Source of the DNA: a virus
Taxonomy: Duplodnaviria > Caudoviricetes
IMG/VR virus record: IMGVR_UViG_3300022862_000007
Location: 1 to 51,638 of that record
DNA length: 51,638 nucleotides
Direction: 5' to 3' (one strand)
Shown here: positions 54 through 51,638 of the stretch, piece after piece
Numbering within the stretch: the first letter of the stretch is position 1
Layout: each line of letters starts with the position of its first letter
Program-made: the position numbers and the translations under genes
Notes under the pieces: model-generated
What the model saw: only the letters and a program-made list of their open reading frames with translations
Told to the model about the DNA's origin: nothing
The model's database searches: none

Positions 54-134
54 ATGATGAAACGTCTTAACCAACAAGCTGGTTTTACTTTAATTGAGAT
101 GCTTATAGTTTTGTTAATTATATCCATCCTAATT
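54..134 (+). pseudogene. comGC: 5' half of competence major pilin ComGC, interrupted by the prophage
   Basis: ATG at 54 gives MMKRLNQQAGFTLIEMLIVLLIISILI with the type IV prepilin motif G|FTLIEM; it then runs into phage DNA (IQFQNV*, stop 153-155). Confidence 0.93.
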
Positions 135-189: not shown

Positions 190-2091
190 TCAACCCTTGT
201 GCTGTCTACCTTCACGCAAGTTATTTTCTCTTATATATTTTAGTATGGTGCCTTGTGAACTACCCAATTCTTTAGCAATCTCTATACTAGTCATGTTTGG
301 ATTGACAGTAATTAACCTTTTAATACCTTCAATAATTTCTGCTTTTCGTTCAGGGCTGCCTTTACCTAGTTTTAAATTTGAATAGGGTCCGAAGCGTTCT
401 TCATCTAGTCGCAAAGTTTGTGCATTCAATCCTGTCAGTCGTTTTAATTCCATAAATGATATCGGAGAAGGCTGGGCATCTAAAATAGCTTGTGTAGCCT
501 CATAACGTTCTCTTTGTTGTTGTAATAACCGTTCTTCGTATTCCAGATTTGTTTCATCAATATTAATCTTTAAATCAATAGGGAAATCATTGATTGTAGT
601 AAATTTAAACGTGATGGTGTTATCAGCTGGTGAGAGTAGTGCATATTCGAACAAGGCTGCTATTAAATCTTCTTTGTCTTTCTCACTGTATTCTGTGTCA
701 ATGCGATAGATAGTCGATAAATGTTCTTCTACTACTGCTAAATTATCAAGCAACGCATCATAACTATATTTCTCATCCTTCAGCAAATCTATTTTCATTT
801 TTAATTCATCAAAGCTCGCTTTTAAACCCGCATTCTCTGTTTCGATTGACTTTGTTTTTTCCTCATATTTTTCTTTTGTTAGCTTGCTATCTAAATACAA
901 ATCTAGCAACTTATCAATTTTCCCATTATTATCGCTCATGATCTTTTGTAGATTGGATGCTTGTTGCTCCAGTTGGGTAATTTGAGATTCGTCTTTGAAT
1001 TCAATATCCAGATATCTTTTCGCAGTTTCTTCGCTCAGCAAAATATTTTTAACTGCCAATACAAGGGGTCTAGTAATGCGAACAGCGTTATATTTCGGAT
1101 CGTAGGGGCATGGCTCAGCTAATCCACGATTATGTGCTAAATACCATCTATATCCACCATACTGTGATTTATCGCCTTGCTGTAAAGATATTTTTCGACC
1201 ACATTCAGCGCATGAAATATGCAGCTTAGCTAATGGATGATGATGTTTCCGGGTTGTAGAGAATGGTTTAGCATTTGTTTCGATGATGTGTTGTATACGC
1301 TCAAAAGTTTCTACTGTTCGCAGTAAGGGATATTTTTTCTTAATGGTAATTGTTTCACCATTCATAAATGTTACGCTGTATTCACCACAGTAAGCTGGAT
1401 TTAATAATCTTTGGTACACTGTGTTGGCATGCCATTTAGCACCGTTTGGCGTTCGTGATATTTTATTCAAACGTCTAGCAATACTAGAGGGGCCATATCC
1501 CTGTAAAAATAATTCATCGATGAATGATATAACCCAAGAAAATTCCTCATTAAGGGATACTTCTTTTGTTTCCTTGTCGTAAATATATTCAAATGGTACA
1601 CGTCCGTATATTCCACCCTCGCGTACATATTGGCGTAATCCTCGTTGGGATCTCCTACGAAATAAACGACGCTCTCGTCTCGCAATGATGTTGTATAAAT
1701 CAGAACGAAATTCATCATCTTCATTGTCTAAGTCTATAACTAAGCCTGGTTCTGCAATTTTTACATTATTTTCACGCAACACTAATTTTAATTCTTCCCA
1801 ATTCAATGTATCTAAGCGTGATAACCTGTCTTGATCGGCTACTAGTACAATATCTACTAGGCCATCATCTACACTATCCATTAAAGCTGTTAACCCTTTT
1901 TTATCAAGCTTTGCACCACTTTCTACATCTTTAAAAACTTCAACGATATGCCAGTTTTGTTTGTTCGCATATTCTACTAGATCATGTTCCTGGGCAGCTA
2001 AACTATATTTGTCTTCTTGATTGCGGGTAGATACACGAACGTATATAGCTACACGTAAAATATTTTTGGCTGCAGTTTCTTTTACGGTCAT
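190..2091 (-). CDS. int: Large serine recombinase (phage integrase) with C-terminal HTH extension
   Basis: YVRVST catalytic motif, DRLSR, recombinase domain (GRVPFEY, LLNPAYCG), CAECG zinc ribbon and coiled coil; adjacent to attL. Confidence 0.95.
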   Translation of the reverse strand: MTVKETAAKNILRVAIYVRVSTRNQEDKYSLAAQEHDLVEYANKQNWHIVEVFKDVESGAKLDKKGLTALMDSVDDGLVDIVLVADQDRLSRLDTLNWEELKLVLRENNVKIAEPGLVIDLDNEDDEFRSDLYNIIARRERRLFRRRSQRGLRQYVREGGIYGRVPFEYIYDKETKEVSLNEEFSWVISFIDELFLQGYGPSSIARRLNKISRTPNGAKWHANTVYQRLLNPAYCGEYSVTFMNGETITIKKKYPLLRTVETFERIQHIIETNAKPFSTTRKHHHPLAKLHISCAECGRKISLQQGDKSQYGGYRWYLAHNRGLAEPCPYDPKYNAVRITRPLVLAVKNILLSEETAKRYLDIEFKDESQITQLEQQASNLQKIMSDNNGKIDKLLDLYLDSKLTKEKYEEKTKSIETENAGLKASFDELKMKIDLLKDEKYSYDALLDNLAVVEEHLSTIYRIDTEYSEKDKEDLIAALFEYALLSPADNTITFKFTTINDFPIDLKINIDETNLEYEERLLQQQRERYEATQAILDAQPSPISFMELKRLTGLNAQTLRLDEERFGPYSNLKLGKGSPERKAEIIEGIKRLITVNPNMTSIEIAKELGSSQGTILKYIRENNLREGRQHKG

Positions 2092-13296: not shown

Positions 13297-13791
13297 TCAA
13301 TAGTTTAGACCTTTTTCAATACACTCTTCAGCCAATTCAGGTAAATCTAGATACTTGTATCTCTTGGATGTCTTGATAGGATATGAAGAATACACAAAAT
13401 CAATAAACTCATTCCAATTAAGTCTTTCAGTATCTTTGATTACTGAATCTAATATCAATTTACAGTTATCAGAAATTCGAATCGGAGCTGATTCAAAAAC
13501 ATTTCTTGGATTTTTAACTTTTAAACTAATTACCTCTTTAGTTGTGCCAAAAGCAGTTATATCTTCATTAATGATTAAATGCTTATCCTCTACAACAGCA
13601 TTATATACATCAGGGACATATGGACCATAGTGATCAAAATACCAATCAATATCTGTTAATTGTTCCCCGAAGTCAAGGGAGGAGTACCAATCAGCCAAAT
13701 AAACCATTTTTGTAATCCTAGTTTTAGACAGTTCATTTTTATATGGGTAGTATTTTGCGAAGTATCTTACAATATGTTTAATTTTAACCAT
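13297..13791 (-). CDS. Panacea-domain (DUF4065/SocA-like) antitoxin
   Basis: TKMVYLADWY..G..LT..DWYFDHYGPY signature. Confidence 0.85.
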   Translation of the reverse strand: MVKIKHIVRYFAKYYPYKNELSKTRITKMVYLADWYSSLDFGEQLTDIDWYFDHYGPYVPDVYNAVVEDKHLIINEDITAFGTTKEVISLKVKNPRNVFESAPIRISDNCKLILDSVIKDTERLNWNEFIDFVYSSYPIKTSKRYKYLDLPELAEECIEKGLNY

Positions 13792-14543
13792 TAGTTTGTT
13801 CCCCCCTCTCCAATAGGTAAATTATTTTTAATTGACTCCACTAATGATTTTCCAAATGGACCTTCAAGGAATTGGTTGTATTGTGTAGTGTCTTGTAATG
13901 AATTGTTTACAGATTCTATTACTACAACAGCAATTGGTTCATCACCATTGAATGTTAACCTTTTACAATAAAAACTTCTACTCTTCATTTTTAGCCCTTT
14001 TATTACATTTTCATCAATGTCACATTTTTTTTTAACATGCTCAATATATTTTTCCTGGTTCTTGTGATAATTAGGTAAATTCCGAATTATAACTTCTTCT
14101 TCAATCCAACATTTACCGATAAAACCAGTATCTATGGGGTATTTAGACCGGCCACTTTTTTTATAATTTGGATTATCAGAAAACCTTCCAACAGGTATGA
14201 AAAATTCGTTATCCTTGACACGATATACTGTAACTCTATCTTCGTTGCCAAGGTTAAATGATTTATAAAAAATTTTTACCATATTCTCGGGGATTGATTC
14301 TAGATTAGATTTTAGCATACCGTTTTCATTCTCAAGTGAAGAAATTTTGTTGGTTAACCCTTTTTTACTTACAAAGTTTCTATTTGTCTGGATCCATGCC
14401 CATACAAATAAAAAAATACTTAAAATCCAATGATAAGGTAATTTGATTACATAATTTTTTGTATACTCAATAGTATACAGCAATGGGATTAAAATAATTA
14501 GTAAACTACCCCATGTCTCCTTCCAATGTTTCAATAACTGCAT
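13791..14543 (-). CDS. Two-TM membrane protein with GAF-like C-terminal domain, putative toxin
   Basis: Two N-terminal hydrophobic helices, a coiled coil, then RVTVY...GRFS.NP...GFIGKCW...PIAVVVIES; TAATG-coupled to the Panacea gene. Confidence 0.7.
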   Translation of the reverse strand: MQLLKHWKETWGSLLIILIPLLYTIEYTKNYVIKLPYHWILSIFLFVWAWIQTNRNFVSKKGLTNKISSLENENGMLKSNLESIPENMVKIFYKSFNLGNEDRVTVYRVKDNEFFIPVGRFSDNPNYKKSGRSKYPIDTGFIGKCWIEEEVIIRNLPNYHKNQEKYIEHVKKKCDIDENVIKGLKMKSRSFYCKRLTFNGDEPIAVVVIESVNNSLQDTTQYNQFLEGPFGKSLVESIKNNLPIGEGGTN

Positions 14544-15492: not shown

Positions 15493-16299
15493 ATGTTTGA
15501 TGTATTAGAACCAATTCTAACTACAAGTGGACTTGCTAGTATGTTTAAGTTGAAAGAAAGATATGACAAAACAAATGAATCAACACCGTGGGTAAAGTAT
15601 AGTGTAAAGCCAAATTTCTATAAAATTAGAGCTTTTGAATTATGGGATAATGAACCAAAAAGATTTTTTAGAATTTATCATGCACCTGATATGAATGAAT
15701 ACTTAAAAAATACGTTAATGTCATTACCTGAAGTTGTTAAAAAAGGAACGTATTATATTGATTTTCAAGCAGCTGATTACTTACAAATAGCAACTAATAT
15801 TGCTGAAATATTGGCTTCAGAAGAAATAATACAAGAAAGTAAAGCAACTAGTAGACTTGCACATACATCCAGGTTTGAAGGACTGGAATTACCTGATGTT
15901 GATGTATCTCAAGAAGAGGTGCTAGGACAAACATTTTCCTGGAGAGAGATTATTGCAATTTGGGAAGATAATTCAGAGCAGAATAATTTGAAAAAAGTTT
16001 TAAGTCAAAACGGAATTTATATTCAACGCTCAGAAGATGGCAAAAGTCGATATATTGGTAGTGCTTATGGTACAGGTGGGATTATAGGTAGGTGGATGAC
16101 TCATTTAGGGTTTTTAGGTGATGCACATCATTTGAATTTATATATTTTAGAAAACGGCTATAATTCAATTACTTTTTCCGTCATTGAGTTTATGGAAGGG
16201 ACGAATTCAGAAATAATCCAGAAGGAGTCTATGTGGAAAAAAACGTTTGGAACAATCAATAAAGGTCCCTACAATGGAATTCAGCTAAATAAAAATTAG
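15493..16299 (+). CDS. GIY-YIG nuclease-domain protein
   Basis: NGIYIQ...RYIGSAYG..GIIGRW..H, FSVIE, KESMWK and terminal LNKN. Confidence 0.85.
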   Translation: MFDVLEPILTTSGLASMFKLKERYDKTNESTPWVKYSVKPNFYKIRAFELWDNEPKRFFRIYHAPDMNEYLKNTLMSLPEVVKKGTYYIDFQAADYLQIATNIAEILASEEIIQESKATSRLAHTSRFEGLELPDVDVSQEEVLGQTFSWREIIAIWEDNSEQNNLKKVLSQNGIYIQRSEDGKSRYIGSAYGTGGIIGRWMTHLGFLGDAHHLNLYILENGYNSITFSVIEFMEGTNSEIIQKESMWKKTFGTINKGPYNGIQLNKN

Positions 16300-17798: not shown

Positions 17799-18725
17799 AT
17801 GGCGCGGGTTCGTGATCCCAATCGCGATAAAGCACTAGAGATTTATATGCAACATGACGGTAAAATAACTAACCGTGCCATCGCGGAAATCTTGGGTGTA
17901 TCAGAAAAAACCATTGGTTCATGGAAATCTAAATCAAAGGATAATTGGAAAGGAAAATTAAACGGAGTACTCCAATCAAGCGAACGGAGTACTCCGATAA
18001 AAATACAATCGAAAAAAAGTAAAGAAAAAGTCGCCGAATCAGATGACATTTCCACTTTGGTAACAGAGGACGGATTAACTGATAAACAACGGCTTTTTTG
18101 TATGTACTATGTTCGGTCACTGAATGCTACAAGTGCATACAAAAAAGTGTATGATTGCAGCTATCAAGCAGCGATGGCGAACGGAAGTAGATTGCTAAGT
18201 AATGCTAAGGTGAAAGAAACTATTGCTGAATTGAAAAAGCAAAGGCTTGAGAGTCTTGATTTAGATAAATTTGATGTGTTAGAGAAGTATAAAGCTATCG
18301 CCTTTGCGGACATAACGGACTTCATTGATTTTACTCAAGTTGATTCGGAAGCAACAGAGACAACAGTTGAATATAATCCTGATGGCTCGAAGAAGTCTGA
18401 GAAAACAGAAGTAGTACCATATACGTATACAAAATTCTCTATGCATCATTCAGAAGAGATTGACGGCATGCTCATAACTGAATTGTCGAAAGGTAAAGAC
18501 GGCATGTTCAAAGTTAAACTTGCTGATAAGATGGCAGCACTTGCATTTCTTGCAAAGTATACGGATTTACTCAATGAAAATGAACGTAAGCAGTTGCAGA
18601 ATGAGCAAGCCAAGTTGAACATTGATAAAACAAAAGTTGAAATTGATAAACTCGAAAAACCTGATAGTAATAAGCAAGAATCGGAGATTGCGAAAATGTT
18701 ACGTCGCATGGCTGGTGAAGAGTAA
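17799..18725 (+). CDS. terS: Terminase small subunit
   Basis: N-terminal HTH (MARVRDPNRDKA), LTDKQRLFC..Y..SLNAT.AY and IAFADITDF. Confidence 0.92.
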   Translation: MARVRDPNRDKALEIYMQHDGKITNRAIAEILGVSEKTIGSWKSKSKDNWKGKLNGVLQSSERSTPIKIQSKKSKEKVAESDDISTLVTEDGLTDKQRLFCMYYVRSLNATSAYKKVYDCSYQAAMANGSRLLSNAKVKETIAELKKQRLESLDLDKFDVLEKYKAIAFADITDFIDFTQVDSEATETTVEYNPDGSKKSEKTEVVPYTYTKFSMHHSEEIDGMLITELSKGKDGMFKVKLADKMAALAFLAKYTDLLNENERKQLQNEQAKLNIDKTKVEIDKLEKPDSNKQESEIAKMLRRMAGEE

Positions 18726-19933
18726 TGGCTGAATTAACAAAAAAGCAACAGACCGTTATGGATTCGTACGTAAAAGAAAAACCAAAAATCATAGTCGCGA
18801 GTGGCGCAAAGCGAGCAGGAAAAACATTTGTGTTTATCTTGCTTTATTTAATGCATATTGCAAAGTATGAAGGACAAGGGTTATCTTTTATCATCGGTGG
18901 CGCTACACAAGCGAGTATACGACGCAACGTACTAGATGATATGGAAATGATATTGGGCAAAGAATTAAAGCTCAATAAGGCCAATGCTGTTACGATTTTC
19001 GGTAATAAAGTATATGTATTTGATGGGGCAAAAGCAGATTCATGGAAAAAGGCACGTGGTTTTACTGCAGCAGGGGCTTTCGTCAACGAAGGAACTGCAT
19101 TACATGACTCATTTGTAAAAGAAGTTATTTCACGTTGTTCTTACCCAGGGGCTAGAGTATTAATCGATACAAACCCAGAGAATCCTGCACACAGTATCAA
19201 GAAAGACTACATTGACAAAGATGGTCAGACTTTAGAAAGTGGTCGTTTGAACATTCGTGTATTCAATTTTTCTTTATTTGATAACGATAAATTAGATCAG
19301 GAATACATCGAGTCAATTGTAGCAAGTACACCTTCTGGTATGTTTACTGAACGCGATATTCACGGACGTTGGGTAGCTGCTGAAGGTATAATATATAGAG
19401 ATTTTAAAGAGAAAGTACATTATGTTTCTTTAGAAGAATTCAACAAAAAGAATATTGTGAAATATTTTGCTGGGGTTGACTGGGGATACGAGCACTTCGG
19501 ATCTATCGTTGTGCTGGCTGAAGATGACCAAGGCGATGTGTATTTGTGTGAAGAGCATGCTCATCAATATTATGAGATTGATGATTGGGTAAAGATAGCG
19601 AAAGATATTAAAGAGCGTTACGGCAATATCAATTTTTATTGTGATACAGCTCGACCAGAACATGTTGCACGTTTCAAACGCGAAAAAATACGAGCATTCA
19701 ATGCAAAGAAAGCAGTTGTTGCAGGGATTGAAGAAGTAGCTAGACGATTCAAATTGGAAAGATTATTTATTGTTCGTGATAAAGTAAAACGTTTTGAAGA
19801 TGAAATTTTTCAATACGTGTGGAATTCGAGCACAGGAGAACCAGTTAAATTATGGGATGACGTACTGGATGCTCTACGCTATGCGATTTATACGCATTAT
19901 TATAAAGAAATCATCACAGGGAAGAACCGATAA
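18725..19933 (+). CDS. terL: Terminase large subunit (PBSX family)
   Basis: Walker A SGAKRAGKT, FVNE, DTNP, GVDWG and DDVLDALRYA. Confidence 0.95.
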   Translation: MAELTKKQQTVMDSYVKEKPKIIVASGAKRAGKTFVFILLYLMHIAKYEGQGLSFIIGGATQASIRRNVLDDMEMILGKELKLNKANAVTIFGNKVYVFDGAKADSWKKARGFTAAGAFVNEGTALHDSFVKEVISRCSYPGARVLIDTNPENPAHSIKKDYIDKDGQTLESGRLNIRVFNFSLFDNDKLDQEYIESIVASTPSGMFTERDIHGRWVAAEGIIYRDFKEKVHYVSLEEFNKKNIVKYFAGVDWGYEHFGSIVVLAEDDQGDVYLCEEHAHQYYEIDDWVKIAKDIKERYGNINFYCDTARPEHVARFKREKIRAFNAKKAVVAGIEEVARRFKLERLFIVRDKVKRFEDEIFQYVWNSSTGEPVKLWDDVLDALRYAIYTHYYKEIITGKNR

Positions 19934-39420: not shown

Positions 39421-39678
39421 ATGAAAATTAACTGGAAAGTACGTTTAAAACACAAACCATTCTTAGTGGGAGCATTTGCTTTACTATTACTGTTAGTGCA
39501 ACAAATCGGTGCGCTATTCGGTTACGACACAACAATTTATAATGAGCGAGTTACAGAGTTATTTAACACTGTGCTCGCTTTTTTAGTGCTAATTGGCGTG
39601 GTTGTTGATCCGACTACAGAAGGTACGAGTGATAGCGAACAAGCTTTAAAATATGAAAAACCAAAGGATGATAAATGA
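39421..39678 (+). CDS. Holin (phiLC3 family)
   Basis: MKINWKVRLK, two TMs and GVVVDPTTEG.SDS.QAL.Y. Confidence 0.93.
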   Translation: MKINWKVRLKHKPFLVGAFALLLLLVQQIGALFGYDTTIYNERVTELFNTVLAFLVLIGVVVDPTTEGTSDSEQALKYEKPKDDK

Positions 39679-40394
39679 TGGTTTATACTTTCAAACAAAC
39701 CTTTCTACCTGCAAGCAAATATTCAATCAAAGCGCCATACTCAATGGTGCCTCAATATATCACAGTACACAATACAGCCAATGATGCACCAGCTGCTAAC
39801 GAAATTGCTTACATGATTAATAACAATAATCAAGTATCTTATCACGTGGCAATAGATGATAAAGAAGTTATTCAAGCTATTCCTTTCAACCGAAGTGCTT
39901 GGCACTGTGGTGATGGTGGAGGTAGTACCGACCCTAATGCACATAAAAAAGGCAATCGTATTTCTATTGGAGTAGAGATTTGCTACAGCAAAAGTGGTGG
40001 AGCTCGTTATGGAGTTGCAGAGGAAAACGCTGTTCAATACATTGCTAAGTTATTAAAGCAATATGGTTGGGGCATTGAGCGAGTGAAGAAACATCAGGAC
40101 TGGAACGGTAAGTATTGCCCGCACCGTATATTGGCAGAAGAACGTTGGAATAGTTTCTTGAAACGGATTGAAGAAGCAATGAAGCCAATGGAAATACAAA
40201 AACCAACCGAAAAGGATGATGATATTATGAAATTCACAAACTCAACAACAAAAGGTGCGGTACGTGATTTAATCAAACAAGCAGTGGACAAAGCGATCAT
40301 TGATAAGTCATGGCTTGATAAATTCGATCAAGGTACGATGACAAGTGGTGATTTTGAAGGTTTGAAGATTATTATTGAGCAACGTAGTAAATAA
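39675..40394 (+). CDS. Endolysin, N-acetylmuramoyl-L-alanine amidase (Amidase_2)
   Basis: ITVHNTAND, SYH, AWHCGDG, SIGVEIC and KHQDWNGKYCP. Confidence 0.95.
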   Translation: MMVYTFKQTFLPASKYSIKAPYSMVPQYITVHNTANDAPAANEIAYMINNNNQVSYHVAIDDKEVIQAIPFNRSAWHCGDGGGSTDPNAHKKGNRISIGVEICYSKSGGARYGVAEENAVQYIAKLLKQYGWGIERVKKHQDWNGKYCPHRILAEERWNSFLKRIEEAMKPMEIQKPTEKDDDIMKFTNSTTKGAVRDLIKQAVDKAIIDKSWLDKFDQGTMTSGDFEGLKIIIEQRSK

Positions 40395-41668: not shown

Positions 41669-42319
41669 TTATTCTTCAGTTATTTTTGTTAATATATAAG
41701 CTTTTTCAATATCCGATTGATATTTTTGTAACAAACTAAAGAAAACCTCTATAATTTCGGTTGAAAGTAAAGTTTCTTTATTTAATATTTGTTTAAAGGA
41801 ATTATAAGTATGTTTTTTACCAACAAAGAATTCAATCAAATACTCAAAAAAAGTAACAATATTCCAAATATCGTCTTTCTCATACTCTGTATTAAATTTA
41901 TTGTTTACTGATTTCTTAAATATATTTGGAGATCGATGTATTCTTCTAATCATCATAGTATTGATTAATTCTTCAATTATAAAATGAATTTGATCGATAT
42001 CAAAATTTGATACTTTTAATGAGTGTTCTCTTAAACCCCATTTATTATTTAAATATTTCTTCAACGCATTAATTAAAATGGATTCATCTACATTATTCTC
42101 TATAACAGTATCAAGAGTTTCCATATTATTTTTTAAATAAAAATCAGATAATTGGAACAACAATTCGTCTAGAAATTGGTCTATCTCTGAATCGTCTACA
42201 TCACTGGATTCATAATCACTAAGCCCTAAACTACTCAATATTTTTATTTGTCCATTCCATCCACTTACTTTAAATATTTGATCAAAATCTTTCAGTTTTT
42301 GTCCCAAATTTTTATCCAT
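41669..42319 (-). CDS. Hypothetical helical protein, gene 3 of the nitrilase operon
   Basis: 216 aa, RBS GAGAGG, 35 nt after the preceding gene. Confidence 0.8.
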   Translation of the reverse strand: MDKNLGQKLKDFDQIFKVSGWNGQIKILSSLGLSDYESSDVDDSEIDQFLDELLFQLSDFYLKNNMETLDTVIENNVDESILINALKKYLNNKWGLREHSLKVSNFDIDQIHFIIEELINTMMIRRIHRSPNIFKKSVNNKFNTEYEKDDIWNIVTFFEYLIEFFVGKKHTYNSFKQILNKETLLSTEIIEVFFSLLQKYQSDIEKAYILTKITEE

Positions 42320-42354
42320 CTAATCCATCCTCTCATTACTTTTCAATATATAAT

Positions 42355-43026
42355 TTAATTTTCACAATCATCTTCATTATAATCAGCAATGAAAAATGGT
42401 TTGATTTCACTACCTTTAATGTACTTGTTTTTAGATAAATTATTATCCTCAATCTGCTTCTCATCTTTATAAGCAGCAAATTGGAATTCTCCATCATATA
42501 AAATATGCCTCTTCTTTTTATGTATTAAATTGATTACTTCACTCCCTTTATAACTTAATGTACGTAAATGAAAATTAGATAATTGATTAGAAATTACTAA
42601 TTCTTTATTTTCTAATTCATTCCAATGGTTACTGGATTCTTCCAGCATGTAGTTTTCATTAGATTCCAATTTAGAAATTATTTCTTTTTTAGAGTATAAT
42701 TCTAACAATAAATTAACTTCTTTATCTGTTAATTCATTCACAAAATGGTCGAAATCTATAATTTTTTTTATTTGTCCAATCATTTGTGATGTTCCACTTA
42801 ATTTTCCTAAATAAAAGCTCTTTTTATCTTTAATTTCTTGAAACGGTAGTTTATCATCTATAATTGTCTTTATCTTCTCAATTACTTTCATGTTCTGATC
42901 ATTCAAATCTATAGATATAAGAGATAACAAGATATTTACTTGTGTATCAAAATCTGTATTGAAACTATCGCATTTTTTTAAAGTCTGAATAATCGAAAAA
43001 GTATCTTCAAGGATTTTACGATCCAT
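42355..43026 (-). CDS. Protein with degenerate MarR-like winged helix, gene 2 of the operon
   Basis: LTDKEVNLLLELY...LENKELVIS...RTLSYKGSEVI; RBS AAGGAG. Confidence 0.65.
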   Translation of the reverse strand: MDRKILEDTFSIIQTLKKCDSFNTDFDTQVNILLSLISIDLNDQNMKVIEKIKTIIDDKLPFQEIKDKKSFYLGKLSGTSQMIGQIKKIIDFDHFVNELTDKEVNLLLELYSKKEIISKLESNENYMLEESSNHWNELENKELVISNQLSNFHLRTLSYKGSEVINLIHKKKRHILYDGEFQFAAYKDEKQIEDNNLSKNKYIKGSEIKPFFIADYNEDDCEN

Positions 43027-43040
43027 TAGTTTTAACTCCT

Positions 43041-44537
43041 TTAAAATATTTCACTAATACTTTTTACTTCTGAAAAGCTATTTGTGGTATATGGTTTATT
43101 AATTCCTGGCAGATTAATTACATTTTTAACAGCTTTACTACCGTTATTACCTATTATTACAACAGCTTTATTTTTCTCAGAGAGCTCTTGAAACCTCCGT
43201 TTAAATTTCCCACTATCTGGTTTTGGTGTCATAGCCATTACAAATATTATATCCACAAGCCTATCTTCTAAAACCTCGGCAATTTCGTCAATGATAAAAT
43301 CAATGCAAATTAAAATTGCTATTCTCCCTAAAGAAGTGTCAAAAATTGTAATATCTTTATTTGTAAATGATATTTTTTCATATCCATCATGTTTTTTAAA
43401 AGATTCTAAAATCCCTGTGTGGTTTTCATCTTTTTTAATAATAAACTGATTTTGTTTATAAATCATCTCTACAAGCTCTCCAGAACTATTTATTACCCTA
43501 GAAACATTAAAGATGTAAGTGTTATTGTGATCCCATGAATGAAAACTACCCGGAAAGACCATCAATAAATTTACCGGTTCGTCTTTCATAGTTTTCCTAA
43601 AATAATAGTCATCTATTTCTTGTTGAATTTTTTCTTGAAGGTCTACAGGAGTAAATAATTCAGGTAGTATGATAAAGTGAGGGTTACTTTCTAGTAATTC
43701 CTTTACTTTCTTTGTAATTATTTCACAGTACTCATTTTTATTATTTATTCCATTAAAGTAAAAGAGTTTGCTAGTATTACTACTCTCTTCTATACACCAA
43801 TCATAATCATCTACAGTAAAATCCCCTGATAAGAAACCTATTTTTAGGTCCTCTATGTCATTATTTTTAAAACTTTTGGAAGTTCCGAAATCCAAGTATC
43901 TATGTTTGATATAGTTATCAGCACTTACTTTCTTTGAAAGGTGCAAGTTATTTAAAAAGTATCTTAATTTAAGTCTATTAGGATCAGTATGAGGTACTTC
44001 TTTTCTAATATTAAAAACATAATCAGCAACTTTGGATTTTAATCTTAATAATAAAACACCCCTTTTAGTTGGAAAATGTGATTCATTAATTATCTCATTA
44101 TCGATATAGTCAAGTAGAATACTAAAATAATTATCAAGTGTTCTAATCCAAAAAACTACTCTTAATAATAAAGAATTATTGTTCTTTTGAGTCTTTAAAT
44201 CTTCTTTAATAATATATAAGCTCTGGGAACTTATATATTTATATTCATTGGAAGAGTATGGTTTTTCTGAAATATGATTATTCCATGTCTGATTAATTTC
44301 CATAGTGTGTCTTCTAATTTCTCTTGGATCAATAAAATTCAATTCAGAATTAAAATCTTTAAAGTTACTCCCATCTACTAAATAACATAAATTAGCAAAC
44401 ATATCTAATAGTGAAGCAAAATTTGAGTTGGCCTTACATTCGCAATAACTATACTCACATTGGATATTCCCTTTCAAAATATCTATACTTACACACTGGT
44501 TACAAAATAAACTATCTACAAGCTTATTGATATCCAT
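43041..44537 (-). CDS. Carbon-nitrogen hydrolase (nitrilase-fold) protein with unknown N-terminal domain
   Basis: Catalytic triad motifs FIILPEL (E), YKQN (K) and GRIAILICIDF (C), plus PGSFH. Confidence 0.82.
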   Translation of the reverse strand: MDINKLVDSLFCNQCVSIDILKGNIQCEYSYCECKANSNFASLLDMFANLCYLVDGSNFKDFNSELNFIDPREIRRHTMEINQTWNNHISEKPYSSNEYKYISSQSLYIIKEDLKTQKNNNSLLLRVVFWIRTLDNYFSILLDYIDNEIINESHFPTKRGVLLLRLKSKVADYVFNIRKEVPHTDPNRLKLRYFLNNLHLSKKVSADNYIKHRYLDFGTSKSFKNNDIEDLKIGFLSGDFTVDDYDWCIEESSNTSKLFYFNGINNKNEYCEIITKKVKELLESNPHFIILPELFTPVDLQEKIQQEIDDYYFRKTMKDEPVNLLMVFPGSFHSWDHNNTYIFNVSRVINSSGELVEMIYKQNQFIIKKDENHTGILESFKKHDGYEKISFTNKDITIFDTSLGRIAILICIDFIIDEIAEVLEDRLVDIIFVMAMTPKPDSGKFKRRFQELSEKNKAVVIIGNNGSKAVKNVINLPGINKPYTTNSFSEVKSISEIF

Positions 44538-44816: not shown

Positions 44817-45335
44817 TACCTGATTACAACCGTAGAAGATAATGTTCCTTAGAATAGTTAGGTATTAAGACACGAGTGTATAAAATATTTTTTAAGTATT
44901 AAGTTTTATTTGAATATAAGTTATTATTCTCAATTGGAATAAAGTCATGTACAGTTGCCTGGTTAGCGATTTTAAATAGTTGACTCCAGGTGTGAAAAAT
45001 TACTTAAAGGTTGTACTATAAACAAAACTACTTATTTTATTATTTTCACACTTATTGTCTTTGCGTTTGGAGGTAGCATTGACTTTCACTTCTTTTTAGA
45101 GAGAAGGATGGAGATGCTGAGTTTGTCGTTTATTTAGTGCCACGTTTTATATAGTAACAATGCAGTCAGCTCCAGTGGTGAATTTGCATATTAAATTTCT
45201 GATCCATCATGTTCTTTCTTTTTTGGTACCTATTTCTTTTTATATTCGTAAATACCTCATCGGAATTTTTATAAATAATACAATTATACCAATTATAAGC
45301 ATTTTATGTATAATTATTTTGAAGGAGGGAGATTT

Positions 45336-46550
45336 ATGAAGAAAATAACTTTAACAATTTTAGCTCTAATTTTAGTAGTTGCATTTGCTTTACCTATTCA
45401 AACAATTGCAGCTAAAAACAACGAAATGAAAATCCATTTCATTGATGTTGGTCAAGGAGATTCGACGCTTATTCAATCTCACGATGGAAAGAATATTTTA
45501 GTAGATGGAGGACCAAAATCAGCAGGAAAGACTGTTGTCAATTACCTAAAATCAAAAGGTATTAAAAAGCTAGACTTTGTAGTAGCAACCCATCCTGATG
45601 CTGATCATGTTGGTGGATTAATATCGGTATTAAACTCAATTTCTGTTGGTAAGTTTGTGAATAGTGGTAAATCTCATACTACAGAAACATACACTCAACT
45701 TTTAAAACTTGTAGAGCAAAAAAATATTAAGTATATAGAACCTAAAATAGGTGAAATTTTAATAGGTGATTGGACTTCTGATTTTTACTTACAATCGTTA
45801 TATTCCGATGCCAAAGCAGTAGATACAAATGATGCTTCAATTGTATTAAAAACAGGATATAAAAACGTTGAATTTTTGCTAATGGCAGATGCAAGTAAAG
45901 ACTTGGAAGAATTACTTACCAATTCTTTTGATTCTTTAAATGTACAGATTTTGAAAGCTGGGCATCACGGTTCTAATACAAGTACATCATCAAAATTTTT
46001 AAAAGCAGTTAAACCTGAAGTAACAATATTAAGCTATGGTAAGGATAATAGCTATGGTCATCCACATAATGAGGTTTTAACTAATCTAATGAGCGCGGGA
46101 AGTAAAGTGTATTCAACAGCTCAAGACGGTACAATCGTAATTACAACTAATGGTAAGACCTATAATGTTGCTGCTAAGGAGTTCAACGTACCAGAGTCAA
46201 AACCTTCTCAGCAGAAGCCTGAAACAAAACCTACAGAACCAGTCAAAGAATCCTTTAAAAACTGTTCAGAAATGCGAGCTGTTTATCCGGGAGGCGTAAT
46301 GAGTGGTCACCCAGCTTATGAATCACAACATGATGCAGATAATGATGGATGGGCATGTGAACCAGTGGAGGATAGCTACACAGAAAAACCAACTACAACT
46401 CCTATAACAACACCAAGTGAACCTTCAAGAGAGAGTTTTAAAAATTGTACAGAACTAAGAAAAGTGTATCCTGACGGAGTTAATTCATCGCATCCAGCAT
46501 ACGATAAGAAACATGATCGAGATGGAGACGGTTTGGCTTGTGAGAGATAA
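45336..46550 (+). CDS. Secreted ComEC/Rec2-like metallo-beta-lactamase-fold hydrolase (probable nuclease) with two Excalibur domains
   Basis: Signal peptide; IDVGQGDS, THPDADHVGG, NDASIV, GHHGS and YGHPH; two C-terminal NC.E.R...HD.D.DG.ACE repeats. Confidence 0.9.
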   Translation: MKKITLTILALILVVAFALPIQTIAAKNNEMKIHFIDVGQGDSTLIQSHDGKNILVDGGPKSAGKTVVNYLKSKGIKKLDFVVATHPDADHVGGLISVLNSISVGKFVNSGKSHTTETYTQLLKLVEQKNIKYIEPKIGEILIGDWTSDFYLQSLYSDAKAVDTNDASIVLKTGYKNVEFLLMADASKDLEELLTNSFDSLNVQILKAGHHGSNTSTSSKFLKAVKPEVTILSYGKDNSYGHPHNEVLTNLMSAGSKVYSTAQDGTIVITTNGKTYNVAAKEFNVPESKPSQQKPETKPTEPVKESFKNCSEMRAVYPGGVMSGHPAYESQHDADNDGWACEPVEDSYTEKPTTTPITTPSEPSRESFKNCTELRKVYPDGVNSSHPAYDKKHDRDGDGLACER

Positions 46551-47746: not shown

Positions 47747-48324
47747 TTGAAGACCACTTCATACCTAAAAGAGGTCTAGTTTATAGAAACAAATAAATGA
47801 CTATAAAAGTAAATGACTAAAAATTGTTAATCAAATTAAAAGGAGAGAGTTAAAATTTTGTATTGGTTAAAACAAATTAAATGATATGTACTAAAATAGA
47901 AAAGATGAAAAATGTCCATCTTGTGTTGCTTTAGAGTTGAGGGTGGCTTTGACATATTTTTATTGGTTCAAATAAAGTTATTTTATATCAAGAACAAGAA
48001 AATTATTAATCAGTTAGAGCCTAGAAGATGACGAATTATTAAAATATAGAAGACAAATAATATAAAAGTATGAGAAATAGAATGATATTCTTAGAGCAAG
48101 GCCACTCTGTTATGAGTGGTCTTTTGTTATTTAAAGTAGGAGAAACAGAAAATACAGCATAGCGTAACTTTCTAAAACTAGTTGAAGAGTGTAGGAGTCT
48201 TTCTCGATTAATCTAGTAAGTAATTTGAATTAAATAGAATGTTTTTTTGTAGTTAGAATGTATTTCTTAATTAGTATTAATATGGTAACTTTGGAATGTA
48301 CATATATTTTATATATAAGGAGAG

Positions 48325-49746
48325 ATGAAATTGAAAAAGATAGCTCTTTGTTTACTTAGTTTAATTTTAGTAATAAGTGTTACCTTTATGTATCCTACTA
48401 AATCGCATGCTTTTGGTGTTGTAGGAAGTAATGCTCTTAAAGGGGCTGTGATAGGGTCTCTGGAACGTGCAGGAATTAAGTTTGAAAATCGTGAAGCTAG
48501 AGAACGAGCTTTTGATGCTTGGAACATGAAAGCTTATGAAAAATGGAAAGCAGATGAAGCTGCAGGTCGTAATCAGGATTTATGGGAGGCATTTGAAACA
48601 GCGAAAGCATCTGCCCAGACACCCACGCCACTTGATAGTGTACCAGGTTATGGAGAGGTATTAATTAATTCTACTTTTTTTGGTATGGCTGTATGGATTG
48701 GTGCTGAGATTGGTCTTGATATACAACAACACTCTTTAGATAAAACAAGGATGAAGTATTGGGCTGATGGTTTCAAGGAATATGAGGGTATTTCATATAA
48801 TTCCAGTTTTGATATTCGTTTTAGTAAGGAATATGCTGATAATGGTTTTTGGAAGACCGATGTTTATGCACCTGGTCTAACTAAAGCCTTGTGGGGGAAG
48901 GAAAGTACTGACCGATGGACTTATTTAGTTAGTCCATACAAAGATGATCCAGCTAAATATTTTTACATTTCACAAATAAAACCTATTGAAGGTACAGGTC
49001 AGGTAGAAATAGTGATTGCTCAGCAGAATCGTTGGTATTCGGGAGAGATTAATGGACCTTCTGAGGATATTCGGAAAACTTCAGCAAAAAATCTACCTCC
49101 TTTAGAAAAATATGAATATGTGCCTAAACCTACAGATATACCAACTCGTAATATACCAGATATATTGCAGCCGGTTATAGAAGTGCCTGACGTTGGCGGG
49201 ATACCGAGTGCAATGCCATCAATAGAGAATGTGCCTATCATTATACCACTTGATGATCCATTTAGAGATAATCCTCACAATCTATCTTATGAAACACCAA
49301 GTGAAGATCCAACCACTGGAGGGCAAGATCCGGAGGATCCTGATTCTGATGGTGAAGAGCCGACAGAACCAAATGAGACTAGCTGTGATGAGTCTAATGA
49401 AGAGATGGAAGTAGATTCAGACCAATGTGAAGGGATTCCTTACTTCGGCAAAAAATTAGAGTACATTTTTGGAAATGCAACTGGAAACAAACATAATATT
49501 GATCGATCTATTGCAATGGAAAGGCAGTTAAATAGTATTGGGGTTTTTGATGATGCATTTGGTAGAAAACTTGTTCTGGATAACTTATCAGATGCTTTCG
49601 ATAACCCATCTAGTATTCTAAAAACACAAGAAAATGGAAGAATAGTGAGAGAATCATTACTTTCGGGACCTAATGGAGTATTAAAAGTTGAATCCGTATG
49701 GGATAGGGAGAAATTAATAACAGTTAAACTTTACGGAGGGAAATAA
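48325..49746 (+). CDS. Secreted polymorphic-toxin-like protein
   Basis: Signal peptide (..SHA|F), internal hydrophobic helix, Pro-rich then acidic linker, and a discrete ~100-aa C-terminal domain (FGNATGNKHNIDRS...RESLLSGPNG.LKVESVW). Confidence 0.65.
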   Translation: MKLKKIALCLLSLILVISVTFMYPTKSHAFGVVGSNALKGAVIGSLERAGIKFENREARERAFDAWNMKAYEKWKADEAAGRNQDLWEAFETAKASAQTPTPLDSVPGYGEVLINSTFFGMAVWIGAEIGLDIQQHSLDKTRMKYWADGFKEYEGISYNSSFDIRFSKEYADNGFWKTDVYAPGLTKALWGKESTDRWTYLVSPYKDDPAKYFYISQIKPIEGTGQVEIVIAQQNRWYSGEINGPSEDIRKTSAKNLPPLEKYEYVPKPTDIPTRNIPDILQPVIEVPDVGGIPSAMPSIENVPIIIPLDDPFRDNPHNLSYETPSEDPTTGGQDPEDPDSDGEEPTEPNETSCDESNEEMEVDSDQCEGIPYFGKKLEYIFGNATGNKHNIDRSIAMERQLNSIGVFDDAFGRKLVLDNLSDAFDNPSSILKTQENGRIVRESLLSGPNGVLKVESVWDREKLITVKLYGGK

Positions 49747-50255
49747 TGAAAGTAATCAATGGTTATAATCTTTACGAATTTGAATCAAAATCAGAATTTG
49801 AAAAATATATCAAAGTTAATAAAATTACTCTTCTTAATAAAGATTGTGTAGATCAAAAGAAATTTTATGGAGTAAGTTCTGGTACAAGAGACTCGATTTT
49901 CATTGGTATTGTTGGTGAGCAACATGGAATTGACCCATCATTACAGGTAGTTGAAAGAGAAAATTGTGTTTTGATAAGTATTGATGTGAAAATTTATTGT
50001 GTGGGATTAGAAAATTATAAGTTGATATGGATGAAGGAATTTAATTCTCTTGTCTTTGAAATTATTAAGTTACCTGACACCTCTATTCTTATTTTATGTG
50101 AATTAGGGGTTGTATGTCTTACTTATTACGGAGAAAAACTGTGGGAGCATACAAGTGAAGTAATCACGGATTATGAAATAGAGGAGAACACACTAAAATT
50201 GTTTACGGATGAAGAGGAATACTCTCTTTTATTGAAAAATGGTAGTGTTATTTAA
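49746..50255 (+). CDS. Putative immunity protein
   Basis: TAATG-coupled to the toxin-like gene; beta-rich with propeller-like G.KLW motifs; no signal peptide. Confidence 0.6.
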   Translation: MKVINGYNLYEFESKSEFEKYIKVNKITLLNKDCVDQKKFYGVSSGTRDSIFIGIVGEQHGIDPSLQVVERENCVLISIDVKIYCVGLENYKLIWMKEFNSLVFEIIKLPDTSILILCELGVVCLTYYGEKLWEHTSEVITDYEIEENTLKLFTDEEEYSLLLKNGSVI

Positions 50256-50350: not shown

Positions 50351-51247
50351 ATGAGTGAAAATCAAAACAAGAAATCAAGTACAACAGGAATCAAAGAGTT
50401 AATACGAGAAAAGCATCCAGATGCGTGGCTCATTGAAAGTGTGAGTATACAAAGAGAATTAAAAGTTGATGGGTATGGTGCTTTCACCCAAGATAAACTT
50501 TTCATTTATAAACTATCTCCAGAAAAGAAATTAATTCTTATCAATACATTGGATTGGCCAGAAGGAAAAAACGGTCACGTAGATCATTTTGCAATTAAGT
50601 CACATTTTACAATTGACGGAATCAATCTAACTATCGCTAATAAAGGTAAAGATCTCCAATTATTTTTAGAAGAGCAAAAGAAAGACTCCTTTGCCCAAAA
50701 ATCAAGACCATTTTATAGAAAAATTTTAGGGTTTAGATCTAAAAAAGTTTGGAAAATGGCTGTAGCATTGTTTATTTATTTACTTTTCATAATTCCGTTT
50801 GTAATGGGAATGGTAAGTGGCATTACAGATTCAACCTTTATCTCAAAAGAAGAATTGCATAAAAAAGAGCAGTTATTAGCTACAGCAGAACAAAAAGTTG
50901 AGAAACTAAGGAATCAATTAGCTGATAAAGATAAAGAGTTGGAAAATCTAGAGAAGCAACTAAACGAAAAAGAGACAGAGCTTCAAAAACAAGAGGAGTT
51001 AAAGAAACAAGAAGAATTGAAAAAACAAGAAGAGCTAAAAAGGAAAGAGGAAGAAGCTCTAAAGGAACAAGAAGCTAGGAGTCAAGAGGAACAGAAACAA
51101 TATACAGCTCAAAGTACCCCACAAAAAGAATACTACAAAAATTGCACAGAATTGCGTAAAGTCTATCCAAGTGGTGTAAGTGCTACCCACCCAGCTTATG
51201 CTTCAAAACATGACCGTGACAAAGATGGCTGGGCATGCGAAAGGTAG
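50351..51247 (+). CDS. Membrane protein: N-terminal domain, TM, coiled-coil stalk and Excalibur domain
   Basis: GFRSKKVWK plus TM, KQEELK repeats and C-terminal YKNCTELR...HDRDKDGWACER. Confidence 0.85.
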   Translation: MSENQNKKSSTTGIKELIREKHPDAWLIESVSIQRELKVDGYGAFTQDKLFIYKLSPEKKLILINTLDWPEGKNGHVDHFAIKSHFTIDGINLTIANKGKDLQLFLEEQKKDSFAQKSRPFYRKILGFRSKKVWKMAVALFIYLLFIIPFVMGMVSGITDSTFISKEELHKKEQLLATAEQKVEKLRNQLADKDKELENLEKQLNEKETELQKQEELKKQEELKKQEELKRKEEEALKEQEARSQEEQKQYTAQSTPQKEYYKNCTELRKVYPSGVSATHPAYASKHDRDKDGWACER

Positions 51248-51401: not shown

Positions 51402-51442
51402 AAACTTATAAAATTTCTATTCTTATTTTAATTACAATCCCA
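51402..51442. other. attR junction
   Basis: ComGC reading resumes at (CTT) ATT TTA ATT ACA ATC CCA. Phage arm 51402-51420 is an imperfect inverted repeat (13/19) of phage arm 135-153. Confidence 0.75.
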
Positions 51443-51638
51443 AATGTTACAAAGCATTTCGCCACAATAGATAAGAAAGGCTGTACGGCTTATATAAGCA
51501 TGGTACAAGGGCAAGTAGAGGCGTATCGTGTAGATTATATGGCTTATCCTACCTTAGAGGATTTAGTGGCAAAGGGCTATTTAAAGGAAAATGAAACAAC
51601 CTGCCCAAATAAAGAAGAAATAGTGATTACTAATGAGG
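51425..51638 (+). pseudogene. comGC: 3' half of ComGC (runs off the window)
   Basis: ILITIPNVTKHFATIDKKGCTAYISMVQGQVEAY...LVAKGYLK...TCPNKEEIVI matches Bacillus ComGC (LITIPNVTKH, KKGC, CPN). Confidence 0.93.

Follow-up and report, generated by a model that had tools for sequence, protein, structure and literature searches.

The LXG toxins of the type VII secretion system and WapA of Bacillus subtilis are polymorphic toxins of Gram-positive bacteria. Polymorphic toxins are sorted by their N-terminal delivery module, and Sec is the commonest export route listed in the accessible part of the survey of Zhang 2012 (PMC3482391). Phage-borne representatives are described as well, namely the MuF toxins of temperate phages (PMC5576092, accessible part). 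Among toxin domains, the C-terminal toxin regions of CdiA (CdiA-CT) from Klebsiella pneumoniae 342 (Kp342) and Escherichia coli 3006 (EC3006) are presented in the accessible part of PMC9086364 as tRNases of the BECR fold that cut the acceptor stem of uncharged tRNA-Ile, and Table 1 of that source gives K157, Y160, H170, R252 and T255 as the Kp342 active site. Here we describe a pair of open reading frames, ORF1 and ORF2, at the right-hand side of the IMG/VR virus record IMGVR_UViG_3300022862_000007; the record was considered over its full 51,638 nt and is referred to as the window. We read the pair as a polymorphic toxin-immunity cassette that is cargo of a siphovirus-type Lysinibacillus prophage integrated in comGC, and in which a toxin domain related to that of Kp342 is joined to what is probably the ectodomain of a filamentous-phage pIII-like protein. 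The parts of the pair are the following.

48325..49746, plus strand: ORF1, 473 amino acids (aa), a Sec-signal protein with a putative pIII-like ectodomain, a linker and a predicted BECR tRNase domain
48325..48411, plus strand: signal peptide MKLKKIALCLLSLILVISVTFMYPTKSHA, residues 1-29, with cleavage predicted after SHA and before FG, read from the sequence
48412..48774, plus strand: conserved helical sub-domain, residues 30-150, including an invariant FGMAxxIG segment, from the alignment and models
48805..49104, plus strand: hypervariable beta-domain, residues ~161-260, candidate receptor-binding module, from the identity profile and model
49105..49329, plus strand: Pro-rich conserved stretch, residues about 261-335, common to the anchor-type members of the family, from the alignment
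49330..49437, plus strand: acidic linker, residues 336-371, with Cys354 and Cys368, from sequence mapping to relatives
49438..49743, plus strand: C-terminal putative toxin domain, residues 372-473, BECR fold, similar to CdiA-CT of Kp342
49746..50255, plus strand: ORF2, 169 aa, cytoplasmic, predicted cognate immunity protein

By sequence comparison, residues 372-473 of ORF1 are homologous to the tRNase CdiA-CT of Kp342, with the catalytic Lys, Tyr and His kept. In a phmmer search against all PDB chains, this region matched 6CP9_A, the Kp342 toxin, with an E-value of 9.9e-10 and, more weakly, the EC3006 toxin, while a profile built from 13 homologues recovered 6CP9_A at 1.1e-11 and 6cp8_A at 0.0012. 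In the gapless alignment K377, Y380 and H390 fall on K157, Y160 and H170 of Kp342. K463 and T466 would correspond to R252 and T255, an assignment with which the ends of the aligned ranges (388-472 of the model, 169-261 of the chain) are compatible. The AlphaFold model of full-length ORF1 likewise found 6cp9_A as its best match in the PDB (Z 6.6, root-mean-square deviation 5.1, 83 aligned residues), followed by 6cp8_B (Z 6.0) and 6vek_A (Z 5.5) and then by RelE, YoeB and ParE, and Foldseek ranked 6cp9_A first with a probability of 1.0. From this homology, and from the conservation of Lys-Tyr-His and of Lys/Arg-x-x-Thr, cleavage of tRNA would be expected of the C-terminal domain.

The same domain is found at the tip of many otherwise different proteins. 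A search returned 40 relatives, most of which, when mapped by blastp, align to the C-terminal domain alone. It terminates proteins of the LXG (P0028), Fil_haemagg_2 (P0031), RHS (P0032) and PT-VENN (P0039) types as well as three more RHS proteins of 884-2228 aa (P0073-75), and is 49-86% identical across these carriers; a preliminary description of the window had connected the C-terminal motif of ORF1 with the tips of RHS/LXG-type toxins, and these proteins bear that out. In addition, the domain ends VENN pre-toxin proteins on 53 plasmids from Moraxella, Ralstonia and Cronobacter. The toxin tip was the only part of the query with matches when plasmids were searched by tblastn, and a tblastn search of 50,697 phage records gave no match. 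A toxin domain common to unrelated N-terminal trafficking domains is one of the marks of a polymorphic toxin according to Zhang 2012 (PMC3482391).

A comparison of 29 copies of the domain, from which the truncated fragments P0040 and P0041 had been dropped, revealed two forms. Fifteen copies lie at the extreme C-terminus and end in LITVKL[YF]GG[KR], and all of them keep K377, Y380, H390, E443, [KR]463 and T466; the copy in the window is of this tip type and intact. The other 14 (P0003-6, P0013, P0014, P0016-23) are internal and are followed by a conserved KL-GEDV junction, an acidic linker and a second domain; P0017 and P0018 have Colicin_D in this place and P0021 has Toxin-deaminase. In every internal copy the His is shifted by one position, leaving no His at 390; Phe replaces Tyr in 12 of the 14, E443 is missing from 12 and Ser stands in the place of T466 in 10. 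The internal form looks like a dead toxin domain that has been reused as a fixed pre-toxin adaptor.

Within Lysinibacillus, the acidic Cys-Cys linker accompanies the toxin domain in proteins with different N-termini, and two other signal-peptide N-terminal classes carry the same linker-toxin cassette. In Lysinibacillus sp. RC79 and L. sphaericus SDF0037 the toxin-immunity pair is situated 4-5 kb downstream of holin and endolysin genes (cargo regions L003 6217-8219 and L006 6505-10811), and the signal-peptide N-domain there differs from that of ORF1 and is unnamed. It hence seems that toxins of this kind are regularly housed in the post-lysis cargo regions of Lysinibacillus prophages. In the SDF0037 region, a second exported protein of 694 aa with an Ntox35 domain adjoins the pair.

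ORF2 follows ORF1 without a gap, the stop codon of the one and the start codon of the other sharing a base in TAATG. We found only eight homologues of ORF2, from Lysinibacillus and Evansella. A scan of species-representative genomes yielded four loci, and in all four the ORF2 homologue begins at the stop codon of the toxin gene. Each of these upstream genes ends in a tip-type domain, and four different N-termini precede it: the carriers are signal-peptide proteins of another class in RC79 and SDF0037, a 145-aa orphan module in Bacillus changyiensis and a 229-aa reading frame in Evansella. In addition, a profile built from ORF2 together with these homologues was run against five whole genomes. 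It matched in both genomes that have a tip-type domain, each time adjoining the domain, and gave no match in L. piscis, which has an internal-type copy only, or in the two genomes with neither form. At a further locus (L009), an internal-type protein is followed by a gene for CdiI_4 immunity (E 6.5e-12); therefore, immunity there follows the terminal toxin. As a separate observation, the orphan module of B. changyiensis (L004 3-2576), made up of the tip and an ORF2-like immunity gene, stands directly after another toxin end with an immunity-like gene, which is the usual layout of a spare cassette.

Complex prediction was run with residues 366-473 of ORF1 and ORF2, together with three controls. 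The pair passed (0.84 compared to 0.00 for the best control); of 157 solved complexes 116 attain this mark, as do 2 of 215 mismatched pairs. The runs share at least 94% of contacts, with a partner predicted local distance difference test score (pLDDT) of at least 87. The confident part of the predicted interface includes Y380, H390, R394, I465, T466 and K468. With these residues in the interface, the model suggests that ORF2 occludes the active site of the toxin. This pass could in principle reflect a solved complex already known to the predictor, since the toxin-immunity complex of Kp342 has been solved. However, searched alone or as a profile, ORF2 had no sequence match among PDB chains at E <= 10, CdiI of Kp342 included. 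The C-terminal extensions of P0003-5 were compared with ORF2 as possible homologues from which it had split off, and this was ruled out (best E 0.85). ORF1 and ORF2 have no family assignment in Pfam, NCBIfam, PHROG or PADLOC; faint Pfam matches of ORF2 (NUMOD1, TcdA1_RBD_3 and Beta-prop, E 0.02-0.06) fall below the family cut-offs and were disregarded, and in the ESM Atlas ORF2 reaches 0.96 to unnamed clusters, one of them with PQQ_2 on 31%. An immunity gene that lies directly downstream of the toxin domain and is co-inherited with it is a further characteristic of polymorphic toxins (PMC3482391). The toxin domain is accompanied by the gene downstream of ORF1, whose product is its predicted binding partner, and we regard ORF1 and ORF2 as very probably a toxin and its immunity protein.

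The N-terminal part of ORF1 has the features that the preliminary description had listed, that is, a signal peptide, a hydrophobic Gly/Ala segment, a Pro-rich stretch and an acidic linker with two Cys residues leading to a compact C-terminal domain, besides the TAATG coupling to a small cytoplasmic gene; all of these were found again. The residue at the -1 position of the predicted cleavage site, Ala29, is invariant across 33 family members. The helical sub-domain is modelled as helices with a pLDDT of 71-85. It contains the hydrophobic Gly/Ala segment FFGMAVWIGAEIGL at residues 118-131, which is the best conserved motif in the N-domain family (F119, G120, M121, A122, I125, G126 and G130 are invariant in alignment A2), and the Pro-rich stretch has the invariant residues P267, P273, P298, P308 and P312. 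The statement that the N-terminus is not of the LXG, WXG, RHS or MuF type also holds, none of these being present in Pfam searches at E <= 0.1.

The N-domain family is rare. A HMMER search with residues 1-342 of ORF1 against 1.84 billion protein representatives retrieved 34 proteins at E <= 0.001. By blastp the N-domain was matched in 40 proteins, 36 of which were kept with their tail (three fragments, P0037, P0048 and P0056, and P0063, matched over its first 126 residues only, were set aside). In 19 of the 36, the C-terminus consists of a Pro-rich linker, the FPFS[LI]P[WF]D motif and a terminal hydrophobic segment; ten close with other hydrophobic or amphipathic tails, and in seven, namely P0001-6 and the P0041 fragment, the acidic linker and the BECR domain are present. 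Because 29 of the 36 members have hydrophobic tails, the family as a whole is, judged by its sequences, one of exported and C-terminally anchored proteins, to which the toxin-tipped form is an exception. The toxin-type members come with four ends: the tip alone, the tip followed by a 124-aa end without a name, the tip followed by a 154-aa end with CdiI_4 downstream, and the tip followed by an end named DUF4258 by a single source. An N-domain combined with variable C-termini, here 29 of anchor type and seven of toxin type, again conforms to the definition of polymorphic toxins (PMC3482391). The preliminary description had proposed looking for such homologues and had held that a C-terminus invariant among them would speak against its view; the C-termini proved to be variable.

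In a scan of 185,579 species-representative genomes, no confirmed locus of the N-domain was obtained (A2, and A8 for divergent members), and viral contigs yielded one locus with A2 and none with A7. The N-domain was modelled with a pLDDT of 75 overall and above 90 in the beta part; against the PDB and BFVD the model had no Foldseek match at E <= 0.001, the best hits (Z 5.1) being generic helical bundles. Two faint resemblances were rejected. A BFVD entry named 'Inoviridae attachment protein' at rank 26 (E 0.14, probability 0.18) was not taken as evidence, and ESM Atlas similarities of the N-domain to Pyocin_S, Cloacin and TspB clusters (0.75-0.78) lie below the level of shuffled proteins. Between the window protein (P0001) and its relative P0002, identity amounts to 95-100% over residues 1-160 and 80-100% over residues 261-473, compared to only 15-45% over residues 161-260. 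Such a localised replacement resembles that of receptor-binding modules in phages and bacteriocins, and by this analogy the beta-domain is a candidate specificity module.

The genomic context of homologues was drawn from five anchor-type loci (G001/L008 and L010-L013) and from L009. In all five anchor-type loci the family gene comes directly after a gene for a 91-92 aa protein resembling a major coat protein. Where the contig continues, a gene for an 87-88 aa membrane protein and then Zot follow, and a rolling-circle Rep gene is located upstream. L008, an IMG/VR record of 4,661 bp, encodes in order a 39-aa membrane protein, a 91-aa protein with a signal sequence, an acidic stretch, a transmembrane segment and a basic tail, the family protein, an 87-aa membrane protein and Zot (PF05707, E 3.1e-17). 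L010, a metagenome contig of 8,101 bp, has the complete set, with Rep_trans and Rol_Rep_N, an 85-aa protein, membrane proteins of 102 aa and 39 aa, the 92-aa coat-like protein, the family protein (493 aa), membrane proteins of 88 aa and 64 aa, and Zot (E 7.2e-12; PHROGs 'Zot-like' and 'morphogenesis, protein I of M13'); its two ends hold repeated genes, as in a circular genome. L011-L013 have the same coat-like gene directly upstream of the family gene, and L012 and L013 have a Rep and single-stranded DNA-binding module different from that of L010. The pIII-like proteins of these inovirus-type contigs are 36-51% identical to ORF1 of Lysinibacillus, which suggests that L008 and L010-L013 are filamentous phages of Bacillales.

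The family gene thus holds the position and has the architecture of pIII in an inovirus gene order, an assignment made by synteny only because no likeness in sequence or fold to a characterised g3p was detected. ORF1 shares the signal peptide, the ectodomain and the Pro-rich linker with these proteins, its anchor is replaced by the toxin domain, and its gene is not in the pIII position that all five anchor-type homologues occupy. As there is no other inovirus gene in the window, ORF1 is best described, from its sequence, as a derivative of a pIII-like protein and not as a functional member of the group. A pIII-like origin of the N-domain appears probable to us. The N-terminus, the identity of which the preliminary description had missed, would with good probability be the ectodomain of a pIII-like protein from filamentous phages of Bacillales.

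These results can be combined into a scheme in which ORF1 is a Sec-exported bacteriocin built on a phage adsorption domain, a full account that we favour with some reserve. ORF1 would be exported via Sec with removal of its signal peptide. Its N-terminal 335 residues would represent a pIII-like ectodomain in which the virion or membrane anchor has been swapped for the acidic Cys-Cys linker and the BECR tRNase. The helical part and the hypervariable beta-domain would bind a surface receptor of related cells, entry would be started as by a filamentous phage, and the C-terminal domain would then cut tRNA in the cytoplasm of the target, as its homology and conserved residues imply. ORF2 would remain in the cytoplasm of the lysogen and block the active site of the toxin, protecting the producer and its kin. 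The pair might in this way serve lysogens as a competition weapon. A bolder version, which we put forward tentatively and expect rather to fail than to hold, is that ORF1 founds a class of Gram-positive bacteriocins that combines filamentous-phage entry, a swappable beta-domain and nested toxin polymorphism. The ectodomain would find the receptor of the phage by way of the beta-domain. The phage's own penetration step, in which the hydrophobic FGMAxxIG helix may share, would then carry the nuclease across the wall and membrane of the target, and in sister proteins Colicin_D, a deaminase and a CdiI_4-neutralised toxin would be exchanged behind a dead BECR adaptor with its KL-GEDV junction.

Several points weigh against this scheme. 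Every step of it, from export and toxicity through neutralisation and killing to the cleavage of tRNA, is one that we infer, and it also asks of a protein that it cross a Gram-positive membrane. The likening to pIII comes from gene order alone, and the contigs that support it are five in number, small, mutually related, of inovirus type and without a known host. Searches of Pfam, PHROG and solved folds matched the N-domain neither to g3p of the Ff phages nor to any solved protein, and scanning the window for inovirus genes revealed no other such gene and no remnants. The correspondence of K463 and T466 with R252 and T255 is drawn from the ends of aligned ranges only and not from a residue-level alignment, and the C-terminal domain of the full-length model is of low confidence (pLDDT 32-60), the toxin-domain chain having a pLDDT of 90 in the complex run. 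A promoter scan 5' of ORF1 gave nothing better than shuffled sequences. Finally, the BECR domain lies internally in 14 proteins, ahead of a second toxin, where it need not be a toxin.

The most serious competing explanation is that ORF1 is an ordinary Sec-secreted polymorphic toxin whose N-domain is a mere carrier or surface module without a role in targeting or entry. The domain in filamentous phages would then stem from a surface protein of a host, or the likeness would be functionally silent; toxin and immunity would be unchanged, and delivery would occur by cell contact or another route. This explanation gains from the fact that Sec is the route most often listed for polymorphic toxins in the accessible part of the 2012 survey (PMC3482391), from the presence in Lysinibacillus of at least two other signal-peptide N-terminal classes with the same linker-toxin cassette, and from the outcome that no fold or sequence link from the N-domain to a proven receptor-binding protein was found. 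However, 29 of the 36 tailed family members end in a hydrophobic segment and not in a toxin domain, and all five members with genomic context occupy the inovirus pIII position. Moreover, a hypervariable module of 100 residues in an otherwise identical protein looks like a specificity determinant, and a count of zero members in 185,579 species-representative genomes is unlike that of an ordinary host surface protein. We therefore consider this explanation unlikely, and prefer the phage-derived bacteriocin.

Two further explanations were weighed. A prophage addiction, stabilisation or abortive-infection module, with a toxin acting inside the cell that makes it, would account for the close coupling of a toxin gene to its antidote gene within prophage cargo and for a fold of the BECR/RelE kind, which is common to type II toxin-antitoxin toxins, and the same prophage has a second pair of this appearance, with a SocA/Panacea antitoxin. 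It is highly improbable nonetheless, given that ORF1 has a canonical signal peptide and an extracellular-type N-terminus of 340 residues, that its toxin domain elsewhere tips exported LXG, RHS and CdiA-type proteins, and that the order of toxin first and immunity second is that of polymorphic toxins. Alternatively, ORF1 could be a decoy that occupies the receptor on the lysogen against superinfection by filamentous phages, with the C-terminal domain as a passenger or adaptor instead of an active toxin. Homology of the N-domain to a putative adsorption protein would fit such a role, as would the probably inactive internal form of the BECR domain in 14 relatives. Yet the window copy is of the tip type with its conserved catalytic positions intact, as in all 15 tip copies, and a passenger domain would not need a dedicated, co-inherited partner gene that is predicted to bind it; we see hardly any room for a decoy.

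The pair is embedded in a prophage, the borders of which could be located from the flanking host gene. The features concerned, together with a hairpin upstream of ORF1, are these.

54..124, plus strand: 5' part of host comGC up to the attL junction, from a sequence match and the empty-site comparison
190..2091, minus strand: large serine recombinase (integrase) adjoining attL (phrog_95, E 3.5e-75)
48098..48123, plus strand: terminator-like hairpin 5' of ORF1, weak (one site, 1.2 expected by chance)
51416..51638, plus strand: 3' part of host comGC from the attR junction, from a sequence match and the empty-site comparison

Positions 54-124 of the window encode the N-terminus of the competence pseudopilin ComGC and positions ~51416-51638 the rest of it. 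In L. capsici PB300, comGC is intact and represents the empty site: the left flank (1-124) abuts the right flank (~51416-51638), and the window is identical to PB300 up to 124 on the left and from about 51416 on the right. The crossover core cannot be longer than the dinucleotide TC, which fits a serine recombinase. The prophage, which is of a tailed phage, accordingly spans ~125-51415 (~51.3 kb). The flanking ComGC sequence is 100% identical to that of L. capsici and 97% identical to that of L. boronitolerans, so that the host is likely L. capsici-like. PHROG matches define the phage modules from the integrase at 190-2091 to the endolysin at 39675-40394 in a siphovirus-type layout, with integrase, repressor, replication genes, terminase (17799-19933), portal, head and major tail genes, a tape measure of 1521 aa, Dit and tail proteins and an amidase endolysin. 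The gene pair is found in the right-hand cargo region, 7.9 kb beyond the endolysin and 1.2 kb ahead of attR. Because of the empty comGC site in PB300, the pair can be taken to be carried by the prophage, as had been proposed. Some prophages interrupt competence or sporulation genes and restore them on excision; a comGC split by a prophage with a serine recombinase at one end resembles those that interrupt competence genes.

Regarding expression, the hairpin 5' of ORF1 weakly suggests that the pair is a transcription unit of its own. A GGAG at 48319-48322 ends only 2 nt ahead of the ATG at 48325. Because its spacing is better for the in-frame TTG at 48331, the latter is likely the true start of ORF1; the relative P0003 begins with MKK.

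Other genes of the prophage were recorded along with the pair. Proteins with Excalibur domains are encoded on both sides of it (45306-46550 and 50351-51247, both on the plus strand); one of them has a signal peptide, a metallo-beta-lactamase fold and two Excalibur repeats and resembles the PHROG 'nuclease', and the other is a membrane-spanning coiled coil with a single Excalibur domain at its end. In the early region, an antitoxin-like gene with a SocA/Panacea domain (13297-13791, minus strand; PF13274, E 1.8e-15) is directly preceded by a 250-aa gene without known family (13791-14543, minus strand), and the two may form a toxin-antitoxin pair. A GIY-YIG protein (15493-16299, plus strand) matches the PADLOC UzuA models with E 5e-15, and its gene may be a prophage-borne defence gene. 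Three genes at 41669-44537 (minus strand) have a G+C content of 25-29% compared to 33-42% in the phage body; the largest, of 497 aa, weakly matches CN_hydrolase (E 4.6e-07), and the other two have no family.

Prophage-borne polymorphic toxins and Sec-exported ones are already known. The new point is the use of the N-terminal 335 aa as a toxin carrier, a construction that appears to be new among bacterial killing proteins. The accessible part of the 2012 survey makes no mention of inoviruses, filamentous phages or TspB and contains no such delivery class (PMC3482391), and a toxin with a filamentous-phage attachment domain as its carrier was not found in the literature, supplements and subscription journals being outside the scope of the search. 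The proposal of an undescribed delivery class therefore stands, in that the N-domain is unnamed in Pfam, NCBIfam, PHROG and PADLOC and no description of it as a toxin carrier was found in the literature. If the account is true, it would offer a handle on how proteins enter Gram-positive cells and on the receptors of Gram-positive inoviruses, a group of narrow-spectrum killing proteins whose specificity module is exchangeable by nature, and a case of a tailed prophage that arms its lysogen with a part from an unrelated phage lineage.

Compared to known systems, the closest counterpart of the toxin part is CdiA-CT/CdiI of Kp342, for which Gucinski 2019 is said to be the primary paper. The toxin domains are homologous (6CP9, E 1e-9 to 1e-11; also the top structural match), the Lys and Tyr of the Lys-Tyr-Thr triad and the His are aligned and conserved, and in both cases the immunity gene is directly downstream. 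Toxins of the Kp342/EC3006 type are further characterised by stimulation through EF-Tu/EF-Ts. However, CdiA is a giant TpsA-type filament of Gram-negative bacteria that acts in type V contact-dependent inhibition and has a VENN motif and a cytoplasm-entry domain, whereas ORF1 has a Sec signal and a 335-aa pIII-like domain and belongs to a Gram-positive host, and no sequence similarity was detected between ORF2 and CdiI of Kp342. With the MuF, LXG and WapA toxins, the pair has in common a swappable C-terminal toxin with immunity downstream; ORF1 is also prophage-encoded, and the LXG protein P0028 bears the same toxin domain. In contrast to them, ORF1 has none of the MuF, LXG, WXG or RHS signature domains and takes its N-domain from a different, unnamed family, and it lies in the post-lysis cargo region, whereas MuF toxins lie in the packaging module. 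Nuclease colicins and S-type pyocins, such as colicin D, are modular bacteriocins in which receptor binding, translocation and cytotoxicity fall to separate parts. They are similarly composed of a targeting N-terminal part and a nuclease C-terminal part with a linked immunity gene, and the BECR fold is shared with colicin D according to the accessible part of PMC9086364. Colicin_D itself is found at the very end of the relatives P0017 and P0018 and not in ORF1, which has no colicin or pyocin Pfam domain, is exported by a signal peptide instead of a lysis protein and comes from a Gram-positive host.

For the N-terminal part, the nearest likeness is to pIII (g3p) of filamentous phages. The N-domain homologues have its signal peptide, ectodomain, Pro-rich linker and C-terminal anchor, and their gene is located between a major coat gene and a pVI-like gene with Zot. 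The differences are that no sequence or fold similarity to N1/N2 of Ff g3p was detected, that a Gram-positive host has neither a Tol system nor an outer membrane, and that ORF1 cannot be a virion protein because the anchor is absent. The nearest precedent for the combination as a whole is an engineered one: Jakes, Davis and Zinder reportedly constructed a hybrid of f1 g3p and colicin E3 in 1988, in which a phage attachment domain is fused to a nuclease toxin. That hybrid was made in the laboratory, whereas ORF1 is a natural gene on a tailed prophage; if our account is true, Gram-positive bacteria hold the natural counterpart of it.

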